Source of the DNA: Candidatus Eiseniibacteriota bacterium
Lineage (GTDB): Bacteria > Eisenbacteria > RBG-16-71-46 > CAIMUX01 > VGJL01
DNA length: 64,000 bases
Direction of reading: 5' to 3'
Assembly (NCBI GenBank): GCA_041946735.1
Contig: JBHGAY010000023.1
Coordinates: 15,900 to 79,899, forward strand
Part shown: positions 38,700 to 43,268 of the stretch, one piece after another
Numbering within the stretch: position 1 is the first letter of the stretch
Layout of the letters: the number at the start of each line of letters is the position of its first letter
Notes under the pieces: generated by a model
The model's database searches: none
What the model was told of the DNA's origin: nothing
Seen by the model: only the letters and a program-made list of their open reading frames with translations
Position numbers and translations under genes: made by a program

Positions 38700-39542
38700 A
38701 TGCGTTGGACTTCCGGTCGACGGAGCACGAACGTCGAGGACCGCCGCGGTCGGGGAACCGGACTGGCGATCGGTGGAGGCATCACCACGCTGATCGCGCT
38801 CGCGGTCGCGCTCCTGTTCGGCGCCGACCCCAGGGCGCTGCTGGAACAGGTCACGACGAGCGAGACGAGCCAGGGGGAGTACCAGGCGAGCCCGCAGGAG
38901 CAGCAGCTCGCCGACTTCGTCTCCGTCGTCCTCGGCAGCACCGAGGACGTGTGGAAGCAGCTGTTCCAGGAGTCCGGAATGAGCTATCAGGACCCGATCC
39001 TGGTCCTCTTCACCGATCAGGTGCAGTCCGCTTGCGGGATCGCGGGAGCGGCGGTCGGCCCTTTCTATTGCTCCGAGGATCACCGGCTCTACATCGACCT
39101 CGGTTTCTACGACGAGTTGCGCGAACGTTTCGGCGCGCCGGGCGACTTCGCGCAGGCCTACGTGATCGCGCACGAGGTCGGGCACCATGTGCAGAACCTC
39201 CTCGGAACGCTGAACGAAGTACACAACGCACAGCAGCAGGCGAGAAGCGAGCGTGAGGCGAACGCGCTCTCCGTCCGCCTCGAGCTGCAAGCGGACTATC
39301 TGGCCGGAGTCTGGGCGCATTACGCGCAGCAAGAGGGACTGCTCGAACCCGGAGACATCGAAGAGGCGCTGAACGCGGCGAGCGCGATCGGCGACGACCG
39401 GCTCCAGCGCGAGATGCAGGGGCGGATCGTGCCGGACAGCTTCACGCACGGCACCTCGGCCCAGCGGGTCGAGTGGTTCCGCCGCGGGCTCCAGTCCGGA
39501 GACCCGGGCGGCGGCGACACGTTCGACGCGCCGGATCTGTGA
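38700..39542 (+). CDS. YpfJ-like neutral zinc metallopeptidase
   Basis: MRWTSGRRSTNVEDRRG start, GPFYC, HEVGHHVQ, LELQAD, SFTHGTSAQR; GAGGAGG SD. Confidence 0.93.
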   Translation: MRWTSGRRSTNVEDRRGRGTGLAIGGGITTLIALAVALLFGADPRALLEQVTTSETSQGEYQASPQEQQLADFVSVVLGSTEDVWKQLFQESGMSYQDPILVLFTDQVQSACGIAGAAVGPFYCSEDHRLYIDLGFYDELRERFGAPGDFAQAYVIAHEVGHHVQNLLGTLNEVHNAQQQARSEREANALSVRLELQADYLAGVWAHYAQQEGLLEPGDIEEALNAASAIGDDRLQREMQGRIVPDSFTHGTSAQRVEWFRRGLQSGDPGGGDTFDAPDL

Positions 39543-39666
39543 GATCGGCCTGAGGAGAAGGTCCGCGGCCTGCGAGGTCGCAGCCGGCGAGGTCGCGGCC
39601 GCTTGGACCGAGCGGCGGATCCTCGACGGCGAGGCCCCCGCCCTTCGGATCGAGGCTTCGTCTACG

Positions 39667-39695
39667 TTGCCAACTCCCAACCGCTCGTATAGTCT
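39667..39695 (+). promoter_or_regulatory. Putative sigma-70 promoter TTGCCA-N17-TAGTCT
   Basis: -35 at 39667-39672, -10 at 39690-39695 (overlapping TATAGT), upstream of the leader ORF. Confidence 0.5.
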
Positions 39696-39781
39696 GCCCC
39701 GTTCCCCGGCGCCACACCGGCGACCGGGGCCCATCGACTTCGCCTCCCCGCACAAGGGGAAAGGAGAACGAAGGTTCGCAG

Positions 39782-39889
39782 ATGAATCGCAGGACCTGAA
39801 ACCGCCGACGGCCTGAGGGACTCAGGCCTGGCCGTCGAGCGATCCTTCGCGCGCCCGCGGAGGTCCGGAGCGCTTCCACGTTCTTCTGA
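39782..39889 (+). CDS. Putative selenocysteine-containing leader peptide MNRRT-U-NRRRPEGLRPGRRAILRAPAEVRSASTFF (35 aa)
   Basis: AAGGAG and GAAGGT upstream; ATG 39782; TGA 39797-39799 followed by a SECIS-like hairpin; next in-frame stop 39887-39889. Confidence 0.55.
39800..39837 (+). promoter_or_regulatory. Putative bacterial SECIS element in leader ORF
   Basis: 11 nt after UGA: GCCTGAG-GGA-CTCAGGC (39811-39817/39821-39827), loop G at +19; lower stem CGAC/GTCG possible. Confidence 0.6.
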
Positions 39890-39900
39890 TCGCTCCTCCG

Positions 39901-39941
39901 CCTCCTCCCGTCACGCGAAGACTCGCTGGACCGGGAGGAGG
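39901..39941 (+). promoter_or_regulatory. Shine-Dalgarno-sequestering hairpin
   Basis: CCTCCTCCCG (39901-39910) is the exact reverse complement of CGGGAGGAGG (39932-39941), which contains the SD of the TTG start at 39946. Confidence 0.7.
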
Positions 39942-39945
39942 AACG

Positions 39946-41106
39946 TTGATCGAATCCCACGACACCGAACCGAGTGGCCGCTTCCGTTTTGAAGACCATC
40001 ACGAGACGCTCGAGCGCATCGCCGTCGACGTCACGGCGCGACATGCGCCCGAAGTCGACGCGACCGCGACCTTTCCCTCCGCCTCGATCGATGCCCTCGC
40101 CGCCGCCCGCCTTCTCGGGATGGTGAGCGCCCCTGAGGTCGGCGGGCTCGGAGGCGGCATTGCCGGCGCGGCGGCCGTCGTCCGCCGCCTCGCGCGCGAA
40201 TGTCCCTCCACGGCGATGGTCGTCACGATGCACTACTGCGGCACCGCCGTCCTCGAGCAGCACGCGGACGAGGCGACGCGCCGCCAAGCAGCGTCCGGCC
40301 GCCACCTTTCGACCCTCGCCTTCTCGGAAGCGGGATCGCGTAGCCACTTCTGGGCCCCTACCAGCACGGCCCGGCGCACGAAAGACGCGATCGAGCTCGA
40401 CGCGCGGAAGAGCTGGGTCACTTCGGCCCATCACGCGAGCGCCTACGTCTGGTCGAGCCGTCCGGTCGAGGCGGATGGAGCGAGCACGCTCTGGCTCGTG
40501 CCCGCGACCGCGCCGGGACTCGAAGCGCCCGAGCGCTTCCAGGGCCTCGGCCTTCGAGGGAACGACTCGACGCCGGTCACGGCGAAGGGGGTGCGCGTGC
40601 CGGAGTCGGCGAGGCTCGGCGAGGACGGGCAGGGCTTCAGCATCATGATGCAGACGGTGCTGCCGATCTTCGACGTGCTGATCTCCGCCTGCTCGGTGGG
40701 GATCATGGAAGCAACGACGTCACGCGCTGCGGCGCACGCGTCGGGCCAGCGCTACGAGCACATGGAGGCGGCCCTCGCCGACCTTCCGACGATCCGGGCG
40801 TACCTCGCGCGGATGCGGGTGAAGACCGACCAGGCGGCGACGCTTCTCGAGGACACGATCGCCGCCCTCACGCACGGCCGCGAGGACACGATGCTGCGCG
40901 TGCTCGAATCCAAGGCGGCGGCCGGCGAGCTTTCCCTCGAGGTCGTCGCGCTCGGCATGCGGGTCTGCGGCGGAGCCGCCTACCGCAAGGACCTCGGCAT
41001 CGAGCGCTTCTTCCGCGACGCGCAGGCGGCGAACGTCATGGCTCCGACCACCGACGCTCTCTACGACTTCATCGGCAAGGCGATCTGCGGGATGCCGCTG
41101 TTCTAG
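39946..41106 (+). CDS. Acyl-CoA dehydrogenase-fold flavoprotein (atypical)
   Basis: PEVGGLG, LAFSEAGS, KSWVTS, LGLRGNDS, CGGAAY..IERFFRDA; the usual C-terminal YEGT-type Glu is replaced (VMAPT). Confidence 0.92.
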   Translation: MIESHDTEPSGRFRFEDHHETLERIAVDVTARHAPEVDATATFPSASIDALAAARLLGMVSAPEVGGLGGGIAGAAAVVRRLARECPSTAMVVTMHYCGTAVLEQHADEATRRQAASGRHLSTLAFSEAGSRSHFWAPTSTARRTKDAIELDARKSWVTSAHHASAYVWSSRPVEADGASTLWLVPATAPGLEAPERFQGLGLRGNDSTPVTAKGVRVPESARLGEDGQGFSIMMQTVLPIFDVLISACSVGIMEATTSRAAAHASGQRYEHMEAALADLPTIRAYLARMRVKTDQAATLLEDTIAALTHGREDTMLRVLESKAAAGELSLEVVALGMRVCGGAAYRKDLGIERFFRDAQAANVMAPTTDALYDFIGKAICGMPLF

Positions 41107-41145: not shown

Positions 41146-42045
41146 ATGCAGAGGAGAACCGAACTGATCCTGGGAGCGGTCGCATACGACCCCAAGGTCG
41201 TCACGATCTGGGAGGGCTTTCAGCGCTACTTCGACGAGCGGAGCCTCCCGTTCGACTTCGTCCTGTTCACCCGCTACGAGCGCCAGGTCGAGTCGCACCT
41301 CGCCGGCCAGATCGACGTCGCGTGGAACTCCCCTCTCGCCTGGATCGAGACCGAGCGGCTTGCGGCGCGCGCCGGACGGAAGGCGCGGGCGATCGCGATG
41401 CGCGACACCGACCGCGATCTCACCTCGGTCATCGTCGTGAGAGAGGACTCGCCGATCCGGACCGTCGAGGAGCTGCGCGGGCGGCGGGTCGCAGTCGGCG
41501 CGGCCGATTCCCCGCAGGGGCGTCTGATCCCGCTCGGATTCCTCGCTCGCTTCGGACTCGAGCCGGGCGAGGACCTTTCCGTCGTCCCGCACGATCTGCT
41601 CGTCGGCAAGCACGGCGACCACGTTGGCGGGGAGCGTGAGGCGGTGCGCGCGCTCCTCGCGGGACGCGCCGACGCCGCCTGCCTGCTCGACGCCAATCTC
41701 CTGCAGTTCGCGCAGGAGGGAACGTTGCCGGCGGGCTCCCGGCGCGTTCTCGCCCAGACGCCCCCGTACGACCACTGCAACTTCACGGCCCTCGACGTAG
41801 CCGGGCCGGAGAAGGAGGAGCTCCTCACGCGCTTCCGGGAGGAGCTGCTCGCCATGTCGTACGACGACGCGCGTGTGCGTCCCCTGATGGATCTCGAAGG
41901 GCTCAAGCGCTGGCTGCCGGCGCGCACCGAAGGCTACGAGCAGTTGAACCGTGCGGTGGACCGATTCGGGACGATCGAAGCCTGGCTCGCGTCCGCCTCC
42001 GGCGCGGCCGGCGTTCCTTCGCCGGGCGACGAGGTCCGCGCGTGA
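41146..42045 (+). CDS. PhnD/SsuA-like substrate-binding-fold protein without signal peptide
   Basis: GQIDVAW, SVIVVREDSPI..VEELRGRRVAVGAADSPQG, LLAGRADAA; no hydrophobic N-terminus. Confidence 0.85.
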   Translation: MQRRTELILGAVAYDPKVVTIWEGFQRYFDERSLPFDFVLFTRYERQVESHLAGQIDVAWNSPLAWIETERLAARAGRKARAIAMRDTDRDLTSVIVVREDSPIRTVEELRGRRVAVGAADSPQGRLIPLGFLARFGLEPGEDLSVVPHDLLVGKHGDHVGGEREAVRALLAGRADAACLLDANLLQFAQEGTLPAGSRRVLAQTPPYDHCNFTALDVAGPEKEELLTRFREELLAMSYDDARVRPLMDLEGLKRWLPARTEGYEQLNRAVDRFGTIEAWLASASGAAGVPSPGDEVRA

Positions 42046-43268
42046 GGACCGGCTCGGTTCAGGCGGTGGTCGACCTCGGCAATCTCTCGCTCGATCGAGG
42101 CGGGCGCCTGCTCCTGCAGCGGGCGATCGCCCCTCTCGTCCCGGGCGAGCGGCTCGAGGTGCGCGGTTCCGATCCGGAGCTGCCGGTGCATCTGCGCGCC
42201 TGGTGCCGCTCTCGCGGCTATCGATTCGAGACCGGCGCCGTGGGCGAGAACGGCTCCGGCGCACTGGCCGTCGTCATCGGAGAAAGCGGATCGGGGGGAC
42301 GATGGAGCGGCGCGGAGCCGGCCGGGCGCGCAAGCCGTACGGCGTCCGGAGCGGTCGTGGACAGGCCGCCCGCCCGCTGGGGCCTCGCCCCCCGCGGCGC
42401 CTCGGTCGAGATCGGGACGCCGTCCTTCGACTTCGATCTCGACGCCAAGGAGCAGGTCTGGTCCGACGATGCCGCTCGCCTCTATGCGCAGGCGTGCGCA
42501 GCGCAGTGGGATCCCGAGAAGGCGATCGACTGGCGCTCGTCAGCCGACCTGCCCGGCGAGATCGAGCAGGCGGTCGTGCAGATCATGACCTACCTGATCG
42601 AGAACGAGACCGCCGCGCTGGTCGTCCCGGCGCGCTTCCTCGGACGGATCCATCCTCACTTCCGCGAGGTGCAGCAGCTCCTCGCGATCCAGGTGGCGGA
42701 CGAGGCGCGCCACATCGAGGTGTTCACGCGCCGGGCGCTGTTGCTGGGCGACTCGCTCGGACTGTCGACGGCCGGCGGCCAGGAATCGCTGAAGACCCTG
42801 CTCGATGAGCCGGACTTCGCGATCGCCTCCTTTTTGCTCTCCGTCCTCGGCGAAGGGAGCTTCCTCTCGCTCCTGCACTTCCTCGACGAGAACGCGCCGG
42901 ATCCGGTCACGCGGCAAGTGTGCCGTCTCGCCGGACAGGACGAGGCGCGCCACGTCGCCTTCGGCCTATCGCATCTGAGGCGGCATCTGGAGATCGATCC
43001 ATCGCTGCGCGCCCGCCTCGCCGCGTCGGTCGATCGCCGGCATCGGGCGCTCCAGCATTCGGCCGGGTTGAACGAGGAGGTCTTCGACGGGCTGGTGCTG
43101 CTGGCGGCGGGATCGTGGGAGCCCGATCGCATCGCGCACGGCCACGAGCAGGTCGCCGCCCTCCAGCACGACATGGACGAGGGACGGCGGGCGCGCCTCG
43201 CCCGCCTCGGGTTCACCCAGGGGGAGGCGGAGGCGCTGTCGAGCCTGCATACGAAGAACTTCATGTAG
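42042..43268 (+). CDS. TusA-like N-terminal domain fused to ferritin-like diiron domain
   Basis: N-term VVDL..LVPGERLEVRGSDP..LRAWCRSRGY; diiron ligands IENE, DEARH, LGEG, DEARH; GTGA overlap with the upstream gene. Confidence 0.85.
   Translation: MRTGSVQAVVDLGNLSLDRGGRLLLQRAIAPLVPGERLEVRGSDPELPVHLRAWCRSRGYRFETGAVGENGSGALAVVIGESGSGGRWSGAEPAGRASRTASGAVVDRPPARWGLAPRGASVEIGTPSFDFDLDAKEQVWSDDAARLYAQACAAQWDPEKAIDWRSSADLPGEIEQAVVQIMTYLIENETAALVVPARFLGRIHPHFREVQQLLAIQVADEARHIEVFTRRALLLGDSLGLSTAGGQESLKTLLDEPDFAIASFLLSVLGEGSFLSLLHFLDENAPDPVTRQVCRLAGQDEARHVAFGLSHLRRHLEIDPSLRARLAASVDRRHRALQHSAGLNEEVFDGLVLLAAGSWEPDRIAHGHEQVAALQHDMDEGRRARLARLGFTQGEAEALSSLHTKNFM

Follow-up and report, generated by a model that had tools for sequence, protein, structure and literature searches.

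The sensing of ordinary amino acids or antibiotics by leader peptides is textbook gene regulation. In the ermC and cat systems, a short leader frame lies upstream of a hairpin that buries the Shine-Dalgarno (SD) sequence of the next gene; the position of the ribosome on the leader sets access to this sequence, and a third, antisequestor segment is part of the classical design. Selenocysteine (Sec) is inserted at an in-frame UGA followed by a hairpin, which is termed the SECIS (for selenocysteine insertion sequence), and known bacterial elements lie inside enzymes with a catalytic Sec. In the Escherichia coli SECIS, the essential loop bases are at about +23/+24, and a spacer of 11 nt works best. 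A SECIS-like element is also said to precede E. coli selAB; Thanbichler and Bock reportedly found in 2002 that this 5′ element controls translation without recoding, i.e., no UGA is decoded there, and SelB binding represses the adjacent start. In fdhF-Sec of Treponema primitia, the outcome at a UGA-SECIS sets downstream expression, through selenium-dependent elongation of the transcript past that site, as described in passages of a 2013 paper (PMC3892789). The same passages state that a natural attenuator using the incorporation of a rare amino acid had not been reported (PMC3892789). Our own search of full-text literature, in the portions of text it returned, turned up no bacterial leader peptide described as having a selenocysteine codon; subscription journals lay outside its coverage, and an earlier description is possible.

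Here we analyze a 64,000-nucleotide stretch of the genome of a Candidatus Eiseniibacteriota bacterium (contig JBHGAY010000023.1), referred to in full as the window. Positions 39782-39948 lie in front of a three-gene operon whose first gene encodes an acyl-CoA-dehydrogenase-fold protein (the dehydrogenase, below). This leader has three conserved parts, with covariation and a fixed geometry, and it is restricted to selenocysteine-decoding genomes. Our leading, still tentative, reading is that 39782-39948 is a selenocysteine-recoding leader that gates translation of the operon, with read-through as the ON state. The combination of a SECIS leader and an SD hairpin looks like a conserved, undescribed link of one operon to selenium status. 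Its parts in the window are:

39782..39799, + strand: leader frame up to the recoding site, with ATG at 39782-84, four sense codons, and UGA as codon 6 at 39797-99
39800..39889, + strand: read-through part of the leader frame, ending in a second in-frame stop, UGA 39887-89 (35 codons in total)
39810..39828, + strand: SECIS-like hairpin, GGCCUGAG / loop GGA / CUCAGGCC, starting 10 nt after the UGA (inverted repeats I6 and I5)
39901..39941, + strand: SD hairpin, with anti-SD arm 39901-10, inner stem 39915-18 / 39923-26, and SD arm 39932-41 (GGGAGGAGG) (repeat I3)

The arrangement resembles ermC and cat in that a short leader frame precedes an SD-burying hairpin, and in a subset of loci also in having the antisequestor. 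It differs in that most loci lack an antisequestor and their leader stop abuts the helix, and in that what the leader would sense is stop-codon recoding by SelB and Sec-tRNA, rather than stalling caused by an antibiotic or a scarce aminoacyl-tRNA. With the selAB element it would share a SECIS-type leader hairpin that ties expression to the selenocysteine machinery; unlike that element, the leader described here has a start codon, a UGA at a fixed distance, a placed second stop, and a hairpin that is 60-100 nt from the controlled start. The fdhF-Sec site of T. primitia lies inside a selenoenzyme gene and acts on transcription, according to the passages cited above (PMC3892789), whereas this leader is dedicated and precedes genes without a Sec codon. 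Compared with bacterial SECIS elements such as those of E. coli fdhF and of selD in the window's own genome, the leader site is alike in its in-frame UGA, in the hairpin about 11 nt further on, in the frame that stays open, in the G of the apical loop about 20-24 nt from the UGA, and in a host that has selA, selB, selD, and tRNA-Sec. It is unlike them in lying within a frame of 15-35 codons that encodes an unconserved peptide, with the Sec codon at codon 4-11, and in that this frame stops at the foot of the SD hairpin of the next gene.

Relatives of the dehydrogenase were collected by scanning one genome per species, which gave 471, and the best 80 of these 471 were kept as orthologous loci. 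They come from Eisenbacteria, Myxococcota, Planctomycetota, Acidobacteriota, Dehalococcoidia, Binataceae, Nitrosomonas, and other groups. The loci were sorted by scripts, by eye, and by covariance-model matches, into the following groups:

Same three-part leader as the window: 49 of 80 loci
Longer variant leader (L049, L053, L089): 3 of 80 loci
Upstream DNA too short: 2 of 80 loci
Radical S-adenosylmethionine (SAM)/SPASM gene precedes the dehydrogenase: 6 of 80 loci
Atypical: 2 of 80 loci
No leader: 18 of 80 loci

A stricter, automatic criterion places the leader in 47 of the 80. The quantitative tests below use 41 leaders, namely the window and 40 orthologous loci from several phyla, filtered for a frame that stays open through the hairpin. 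Five of 46 automatic calls were dropped, i.e., L032, L064, and L074 (false hairpin), L079 (wrong frame), and L020 (start mis-called). Also omitted were L036, L040, L043, L073, L075, and L096, where calling of the start codon failed, and L019, where the read-through frame passes the dehydrogenase start. L084 (genome G271) is counted among the 41; no claim depends on it alone.

An earlier reading of this DNA, made from the letters alone (the sequence-only reading), had proposed a leader frame with an in-frame UGA, and this frame is present in the window as listed. Across the 41 leaders it is a frame of 3-10 codons that always ends in UGA. When the same hairpin criterion is applied to all 80 loci, a short frame ending in TGA is found in 47, compared with one locus each for TAG and TAA, and the sense codons TGG, TGC, TGT, CGA, GGA, and AGA occupy the place of the UGA in 0-2 loci each. 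The frame is open through the hairpin in the window, as far as 39887, and is so too in canonical leaders of the unfiltered pass. The peptide that would follow the UGA is set by the register of the frame on the hairpin: the same hairpin yields RPGVPGS at a spacer of 10 and ARRARA at a spacer of 11, which indicates that the RNA, and not the peptide, is conserved. Only 2-9 residues separate the start Met from the Sec position, and the tails differ among clades. A second recoding event, at UGA 39887, was considered as well, as the SD hairpin begins 11 nt later, and was rejected as a feature of the family because 17 of the 41 second stops are TAG. Were that second UGA read through in the window, the next stop of the frame would be TGA 39947-49, which overlaps the TTG start of the dehydrogenase as TTGA; it is relevant in that case only. 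The three loci of the variant group have a different, longer leader frame, located about 200-330 nt upstream of the dehydrogenase, whose last codons read ...G-F-G-UGA or ...Y-G-UGA, with a conserved stretch, GACCCGCGGTCGCGAGCGTC, after them; past the UGA, the frame of L089 meets its next stop four codons on. This may be a second type of UGA leader.

In form, the first hairpin is a selenocysteine insertion element, and UGA 39797 would be decoded by SelB. The loop starts 20 nt from the U of the UGA in 20 loci, 21 nt in 16, 22 nt in 4, and 24 nt in one, so that 40 of 41 fall at 20-22 nt. Between UGA and hairpin, 20 loci have a spacer of 10 nt and another 11 loci one of 11 nt, which makes 31 of 41 together. 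The 41 hairpins have 29 distinct 5′ arms, and their loops include CGUGC, CGGGA, CGUGU, GGA, GGC, GGU, and others, all with a G, which was itself a search criterion. In a MAFFT alignment of the 41 sequences (A2), 94.8% of the cells of a 7-pair helix are paired, and all 7 pairs show compensatory change; none of 500 shuffles reaches any of these measures, and pairing falls to 51-58% when the partner is slid by one column. In the window, a lower stem CGAC / GUCG is possible within 39806-13 / 39830-37. In selD of the same genome, about 12 nt separate an in-frame TGA from an 8-bp stem capped by the loop GGA, and this element is shaped like the leader hairpin. Searches with Rfam 15 gave no match at gathering score in the window, and within 39500-40050 just a chance-level match to a microRNA family (E 5.9). 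Using a covariance model (R1) and scoring 150 candidates per genome, we found this leader as the sole match in the window's genome; in four of five other genomes the best match was the known dehydrogenase leader, and in one genome (G206) the known leader received no score, with weak matches elsewhere only. A regulon beyond this leader was thus not borne out by R1, although further copies are possible given that 150 candidates per genome were scored.

The genome of the window encodes selB (349 bits), a Sec-containing selD with its TGA (388 bits), and selA (479 bits), and it has tRNA-Sec (72 bits). Among the genomes of the 80 loci, selB scores above the cut-off in 29 of 40 and in 37 of 40. Considering only genomes with the leader, selB is found in 45 of 49; the remaining four have selA in three cases and selD in all four, with an in-frame TGA in three. 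That is, every carrier genome examined has a sign of the selenocysteine machinery (selB, selA, and/or a TGA-containing selD). By contrast, all nine Nitrosomonas loci are without selB and all nine without the leader, while selD was found in the five of five that were tested. A two-by-two table of selB against the leader (45/4 vs. 11/9) yields a Fisher p of 0.001, a value that is descriptive only, because the nine Nitrosomonas loci represent one clade. No sel gene lies beside the cassette, i.e., within about 4 kb, in the 80 loci (tblastn with SelA, SelB, and SelD of the window's genome). Five of the selB-negative Nitrosomonas loci with a leaderless cassette, L117-L121 (genomes G216, G217, G221, G225, and G231), have their selD match inside an open frame of about 730 residues, which suggests a fused SelD. 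Their pattern fits a use of selenium other than selenocysteine.

The SD hairpin had also been proposed from the letters, and it held up. The pairing of CCTCCTCCCG (39901-39910) with CGGGAGGAGG (39932-39941, the SD) is present as a 10/10 inverted repeat, as is the inner stem GCGA 39915-18 / TCGC 39923-26. This SD-burying hairpin dominates the structure prediction, appearing in both the minimum-free-energy and centroid folds of 39700-39960, and an equivalent is found in 40 of 41 leaders. The fold of this segment has z = -3.28, with none of 200 shuffles as stable, and the hairpin alone, taking the pairs originally listed, has an energy of -26.0 kcal/mol. Perfect 10-bp inverted repeats number 17 in the 64-kb window, compared with 7.5 +/- 4.2 in shuffles; such a repeat is by itself not rare here, and this one stands above chance by lying on the SD and by being conserved (40 of 41).

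Across the family, the interval between second stop and start codon folds best, in 40 of 41 leaders, as a hairpin of -12 to -41 kcal/mol with the SD in its 3′ arm, and the SD helix ends 0-4 nt upstream of the start codon. When the 5′ half of the interval is shuffled, pairing of positions -13 to -5 drops from 82% to 59%, and the mean hairpin energy rises from -23.9 to -16.9 kcal/mol; for 28 of 41 loci, no more than 5 of 100 shuffles match the native fold. The arms of the SD helix covary, in that cognate arms pair at -22.6 kcal/mol and non-cognate arms at -12.5 kcal/mol (standard deviation 5.4); in 17 of 39 loci no other arm pairs better than the cognate one, which is within the top three in 28 of 39. 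These cognate-arm and shuffle tests were used in place of MAFFT with RNAalifold, which on the stop-to-start intervals gave 0 pairs for 35 sequences and 3 pairs for 12; the hairpins differ in length. We also computed an opening cost, i.e., the ensemble cost of unfolding the ribosome-binding site, here from -13 to +2. This cost is 11.6 kcal/mol in loci with the leader and 5.5 kcal/mol in 21 leader-less loci; in the seven of the latter that are GC-rich it is 6.4 kcal/mol (one-sided Mann-Whitney p = 0.017). The sequence-only reading was thus right that leader and SD hairpin belong together, since both are conserved and the leader-less orthologues are more open. Folding models indicate that the SD hairpin is real and conserved. 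In the window, the 25-nt, 76% complementary long-range inverted repeat I1 (39827-39851 / 39914-39938) connects the stretch that follows the SECIS with this hairpin's loop and SD arm, as a further alternative pairing.

The position of the second stop ties these parts together. We defined the SD helix without reference to any stop, by folding from the end of the SECIS to the start codon, and obtained an upstream partner for the SD in 34 of 41 loci. In 26 of these 34, the stop of the read-through frame lies 0-13 nt before the SD helix; the corresponding counts for the other two frames are 0 and 2 of 34, and their first stops are mostly far beyond the helix. The median gap between second stop and SD helix is 5 nt, as in translational coupling through a sequestered ribosome-binding site, where the upstream frame terminates just before the sequestering helix; the gap of 11 nt in the window is at the long end of the range. 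Among the 41 second stops, 24 are TGA and 17 TAG. A second stop set at the foot of the helix is hard to explain unless ribosomes pass the UGA, and its placement ties the site of termination to the SD helix. The read-through frame of L019 and L020 reaches the dehydrogenase start without meeting a stop, and it crosses the SD and the start in another frame, over 94 and 49 codons, respectively.

The mechanism that we tentatively propose would proceed as follows. A ribosome would start on the six-codon frame and meet UGA 39797, with the hairpin ten bases further on acting as a bacterial selenocysteine insertion element. If SelB with Sec-tRNA is available, for which selenium is needed, selenocysteine would be inserted and about 30 more codons translated, with termination at 39887, at the foot of the hairpin that hides the dehydrogenase SD. 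Termination there would invade or destabilize the base of the helix, or leave the ribosome beside it, and the dehydrogenase start would become usable (ON). Lacking charged Sec-tRNA, the ribosome would be released at UGA6, and the SD hairpin would stay closed (OFF).

We tentatively favor the polarity just described, for which the placement of the second stop speaks. In L123, L127, and L151, which have the SECIS sequence of the window, opening costs 8.5-13.6 kcal/mol, and only 4.6-5.0 kcal/mol once a ribosome is set at the second stop. The homologous stop in L122 is the end of an ordinary PEP-CTERM gene (...LLRRRR*), followed by the same hairpin (-42.2 kcal/mol) and the dehydrogenase, with no UGA or SECIS; termination at this position is therefore compatible with expression. 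L122 (positions 1-470 of a metagenome contig) may reflect a natural exchange of the sensor or a chimeric assembly. The read-through frames of L019 and L020, which cross the ribosome-binding site, are likewise counted for ON. In E. coli, recoding at a UGA-SECIS in vivo reaches 30-40%, with enough selenium in the medium required, according to the relevant passage of one study (PMC4513850), and we infer that such partial read-through would suit an ON design better than an OFF design. In the sequence-only reading this polarity, with the terminating ribosome melting the SD hairpin, had figured as "also possible"; it turns out to fit the geometry of the family better, although it is not what the 11-nt gap of the window predicts.

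The sequence-only reading had instead given the switch to helices that compete for the anti-SD. The segment concerned includes the following:

39857..39901, + strand: upstream helix with the claimed competitor, GCGGAGG 39857-63 / CCUCCGC 39895-901 and GGAGCG 39867-72 / CGCUCC 39891-96 (repeats I7 and I15)

The second stop codon lies in the loop of this helix. The sequences invoked are present, namely GGAGG 39859-63, complementary to CCTCC 39901-05, and GGAGCG 39867-72, which pairs with CGCTCC 39891-96. The anti-SD is duplicated, however, with CTCCTCC at 39893-99 as well as 39901-08, and GCGGAGG 39857-63 has a better, non-competing partner in CCTCCGC 39895-39901. In the best fold of 39857-39948 (-44.7 kcal/mol), the upstream GGAGG helix and the SD hairpin form together; because there are two copies of CCUCC, they coexist and no competition is required. 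With the competitor at -16.8 kcal/mol and the SD hairpin at -26.0 kcal/mol, the claim of competition for the anti-SD is not supported in the window. We then masked a ribosome footprint that reached from 15 nt upstream of the A-site codon's first base to 12 nt downstream of it, and obtained these opening costs:

Free RNA: window 13.0, median of 41 leaders 11.0 kcal/mol
Ribosome at UGA6: window 13.0, median of 41 leaders 10.7 kcal/mol
Ribosome on the SECIS: window 13.9, median of 41 leaders 10.9 kcal/mol
Ribosome at the second stop: window 13.7, median of 41 leaders 11.3 kcal/mol

That is, at equilibrium the SD of the window is equally accessible with the ribosome at UGA6 and at the second stop (13.0 vs. 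13.7). This is the outcome that the sequence-only reading had named as refuting it, and by that yardstick a switch by competing helices is refuted for the window at equilibrium. The same result weighs against read-through as the ON state, as a ribosome at the second stop leaves access unchanged, and so do several others. The SD helix of the window begins 11 nt past the stop, with the second anti-SD copy in between; given this gap and this duplication, the opening step is not explained by a static footprint. Over the 41 loci, masking points in no consistent direction: with a ribosome at the second stop, the cost drops by 3 kcal/mol or more in 10 and climbs by 3 kcal/mol or more in 14. An antisequestor tracks the longer gaps: complementarity between the read-through segment and the anti-SD arm reaches z < -1.5 in 10 of 15 loci with a gap of at least 7 nt, compared with one of 25 with a shorter gap (Fisher p = 3e-5). 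In L087, L027, and L042 this helix matches the SD helix in strength and holds the stop codon, which predicts the opposite polarity. In addition, the leader calls depend in part on our own scripts, and some loci were dropped.

Release at UGA6 at low selenium might then be the ON state after all, with an antisequestor freeing the SD and read-through masking the antisequestor (OFF), as the sequence-only reading had it in the first place; we regard this as unlikely, and a selenium-starvation function for the operon, which it would imply, as similarly doubtful. Measured against 200 dinucleotide shuffles, the pairing of the read-through segment with the anti-SD arm does reach z < -2 in eight of the 41 loci, namely the window (-2.67), L027, L035, L041, L042, L048, L063, and L087 (-6.5), with a median z of -0.24 overall, whereas a control segment (the 5′ part with the SECIS) does so in one of 41. 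In L087, L027, L042, and the Dehalococcoidia loci, the antisequestor helix spans the whole arm and often takes in the second stop codon too; its strength equals that of the SD helix (-30.3 vs. -27.9 kcal/mol in L087, -30.5 vs. -30.1 in L042), and it shows compensatory differences between loci. Placing a ribosome at the second stop makes the site 5-13 kcal/mol costlier to open in L087, L027, and L042. When transcripts are truncated ahead of the SD arm, pairing of the anti-SD core with the read-through segment reaches P >= 0.5 in 14 of 39 loci and 0.64 in the window. Selenium-repressed back-up enzymes are, moreover, a known pattern in the passages of one study that deal with them (PMC11097638). 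Set against this are the compact majority of loci, where the antisequestor is missing (the one of 25 above), and an SD core that in free RNA is unpaired with a probability of 0.14 in the median, of 0.00 in the window, and above 0.5 in only 2 of 41. The competitor of the window is about 9 kcal/mol weaker than its SD hairpin, with a non-competing register available and SD access equal in both ribosome states, and L122 and the L123-type loci point the opposite way. An SD-like GGAGG is, furthermore, always complementary to any anti-SD, and part of the signal may be a by-product. The competitor helix is a true one in about a quarter of the relatives, while that of the window is weak; a mutually exclusive antisequestor, as in ermC and cat, is confined to this subset and is not found in the window. 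From these folds, the family appears to have a compact form, in which the stop abuts the helix and no antisequestor exists, and an extended form. By its gap the window is extended, yet its competitor is weak; a kinetic version of the competing-helix switch could act there, on about five contested base pairs only. The arms of the SECIS were considered as an antisequestor too and rejected as a general rule, the 5′ part with the SECIS reaching z < -2 against the anti-SD arm in the one locus mentioned. In the predicted free folds of L087 and L027, the very 5′ end of the transcript, leader AUG included, is paired to the SD/AUG region of the dehydrogenase, and a long-range 5′-3′ interaction is possible in these Binataceae-type leaders.

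Other explanations do without a ribosome that opens the SD hairpin. Control might act on transcription, with release at UGA6 uncoupling the ribosome and allowing termination by Rho or at a weak intrinsic terminator, read-through preventing this, and the SD hairpin serving as a constant damper. The precedent is the selenium-dependent elongation in fdhF-Sec, as the cited passages present it (PMC3892789), and a terminator-like site does occur in the read-through part (39859-39889; 1 vs. 0.2 in shuffles), with a stem at 39859-39877 (GGAGGT / GCTTCC) and a U-rich tail just before the second stop. This stem is weak, however (6 pairs, 3 of them G-C), its tail is poor, and no U-rich tail was seen by eye in the other leaders inspected, which were not scanned with a tool; control at this level also leaves the second stop at the foot of the SD helix, and the covariation of this helix with the SD, unexplained, and we consider it improbable. 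To the same low degree we credit the idea that the UGA is an ordinary stop and that the hairpin serves SelB or another protein as an operator, or is otherwise not decoded, with control exerted by protein binding. It has its model in the element before E. coli selAB, but the placement of the second stop, 0-13 nt upstream of the helix in 26 of 34 loci (0 and 2 of 34 for the other two frames), is sensible only if the frame is read past the UGA; an operator would likewise account poorly for the exclusive use of UGA at a fixed 20-22 nt from the loop, and for a hairpin 60-100 nt away from the ribosome-binding site that it controls. Very unlikely, in our judgment, is a functional small selenopeptide, i.e., a read-through product of 15-35 residues co-translated with the enzymes and acting in the pathway, for example as a carrier or substrate. 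Radical SAM/SPASM genes, a family often linked to peptide modification, occur in some orthologous operons (L032), and operon gene 3 has a TusA-like part, but the peptide is unconserved, with its 2-9 residues before Sec, a remainder that depends on the register, and clade-specific tails. Read-through ON accordingly heads our ranking as a cautious preference, a little short of even confidence, and read-through OFF follows as unlikely, with the rest spread over the other rivals; the sequence of the window does not decide.

We lean slightly toward the broader view that this is a ribosome-based selenium sensor, in which the leader Sec codon reports on the pool of charged Sec-tRNA and SelB and switches a selenium-linked three-gene operon, in at least five phyla. 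Such a sensor would let cells rank a second use of selenium behind the synthesis of selenoproteins. It would provide a direct genetic handle on bacterial selenium sensing, which is poorly understood, and a compact selenium-responsive expression switch. It would also define a new class of very short Sec-containing frames, which selenoprotein searches would miss, and would mark a cassette resembling Rv1679/Rv1680 of Mycobacterium tuberculosis, found as well in the selD-positive, selB-negative Nitrosomonas, as part of selenium metabolism.

The leader lies in a 400-nt gap (39543-39945) between a zinc metallopeptidase gene on one side and the dehydrogenase gene on the other. The operon consists of:

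39946..41106, + strand: gene 1, acyl-CoA-dehydrogenase-fold protein, start codon TTG 39946; matched by all three Acyl-CoA_dh domains of Pfam
41146..42045, + strand: gene 2, substrate-binding-protein (SBP)-like; Pfam Phosphonate-bd, E 8.6e-33
42042..43268, + strand: gene 3, a TusA-like N-terminal part and a ferritin-like diiron (AurF-like) part

The best NCBIfam match of gene 1 is Rv1679/FadE16 (NF049984; E 3.7e-117, 391.7 bits, below the cut-off of 600), and that of gene 2 is the SBP-like Rv1680 (NF049985; E 1.1e-73, 248.2 bits, below the cut-off of 400). The operon is thus like the Rv1679 (FadE16)/Rv1680 pair in the best family matches of its first two genes, and unlike it in that these scores are under the curated cut-offs and that no leader is known in that pair. 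Among papers that name Rv1679 or Rv1680, the passages at hand state no function for them. Gene 2 also matches weakly a putative selenate-binding family, TIGR04553 (E 1.1e-19), and the Pfam matches of gene 3 are sub-threshold (AurF 7e-6, TusA 5.6e-5). The dehydrogenase and the SBP-like gene form the core of the operon: in 10 other loci inspected, the SBP-like gene directly follows the dehydrogenase in nine and was not found after it in L042. An AurF-like gene is often present, in the same position in L035, L021, and L060, and some loci add family III CoA-transferases or a radical SAM/SPASM gene. In L032, L046, L054, L058, L061, and L090 (Chloroflexota), the dehydrogenase comes directly after a radical SAM/SPASM gene, with Pfam matches for L032. 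An N-terminal Sec extension of the dehydrogenase was rejected, as the read-through frames end before the gene, in mixed frames. The dehydrogenase is scarce in the window's own phylum, being found in 5 of 206 genomes (E <= 1e-90), and is common outside it.

Upstream of the leader ATG, the window has about 90 nt of structured RNA. A promoter candidate, TTGCCA / TATAGT at 39667-72 / 39688-93 with a spacing of 15 nt, was noted and was not called by the promoter scan. A -10-like TANNNT box whose end lies 4-12 nt ahead of the leader start codon occurs in 23 of the 41 leaders, compared with 11 of 123 control windows; examples upstream of the leader ATG are L093, L088, and L021 (range L021-L098). This distance makes leaderless transcripts possible, and many of the leader frames with such a box may be translated from them.

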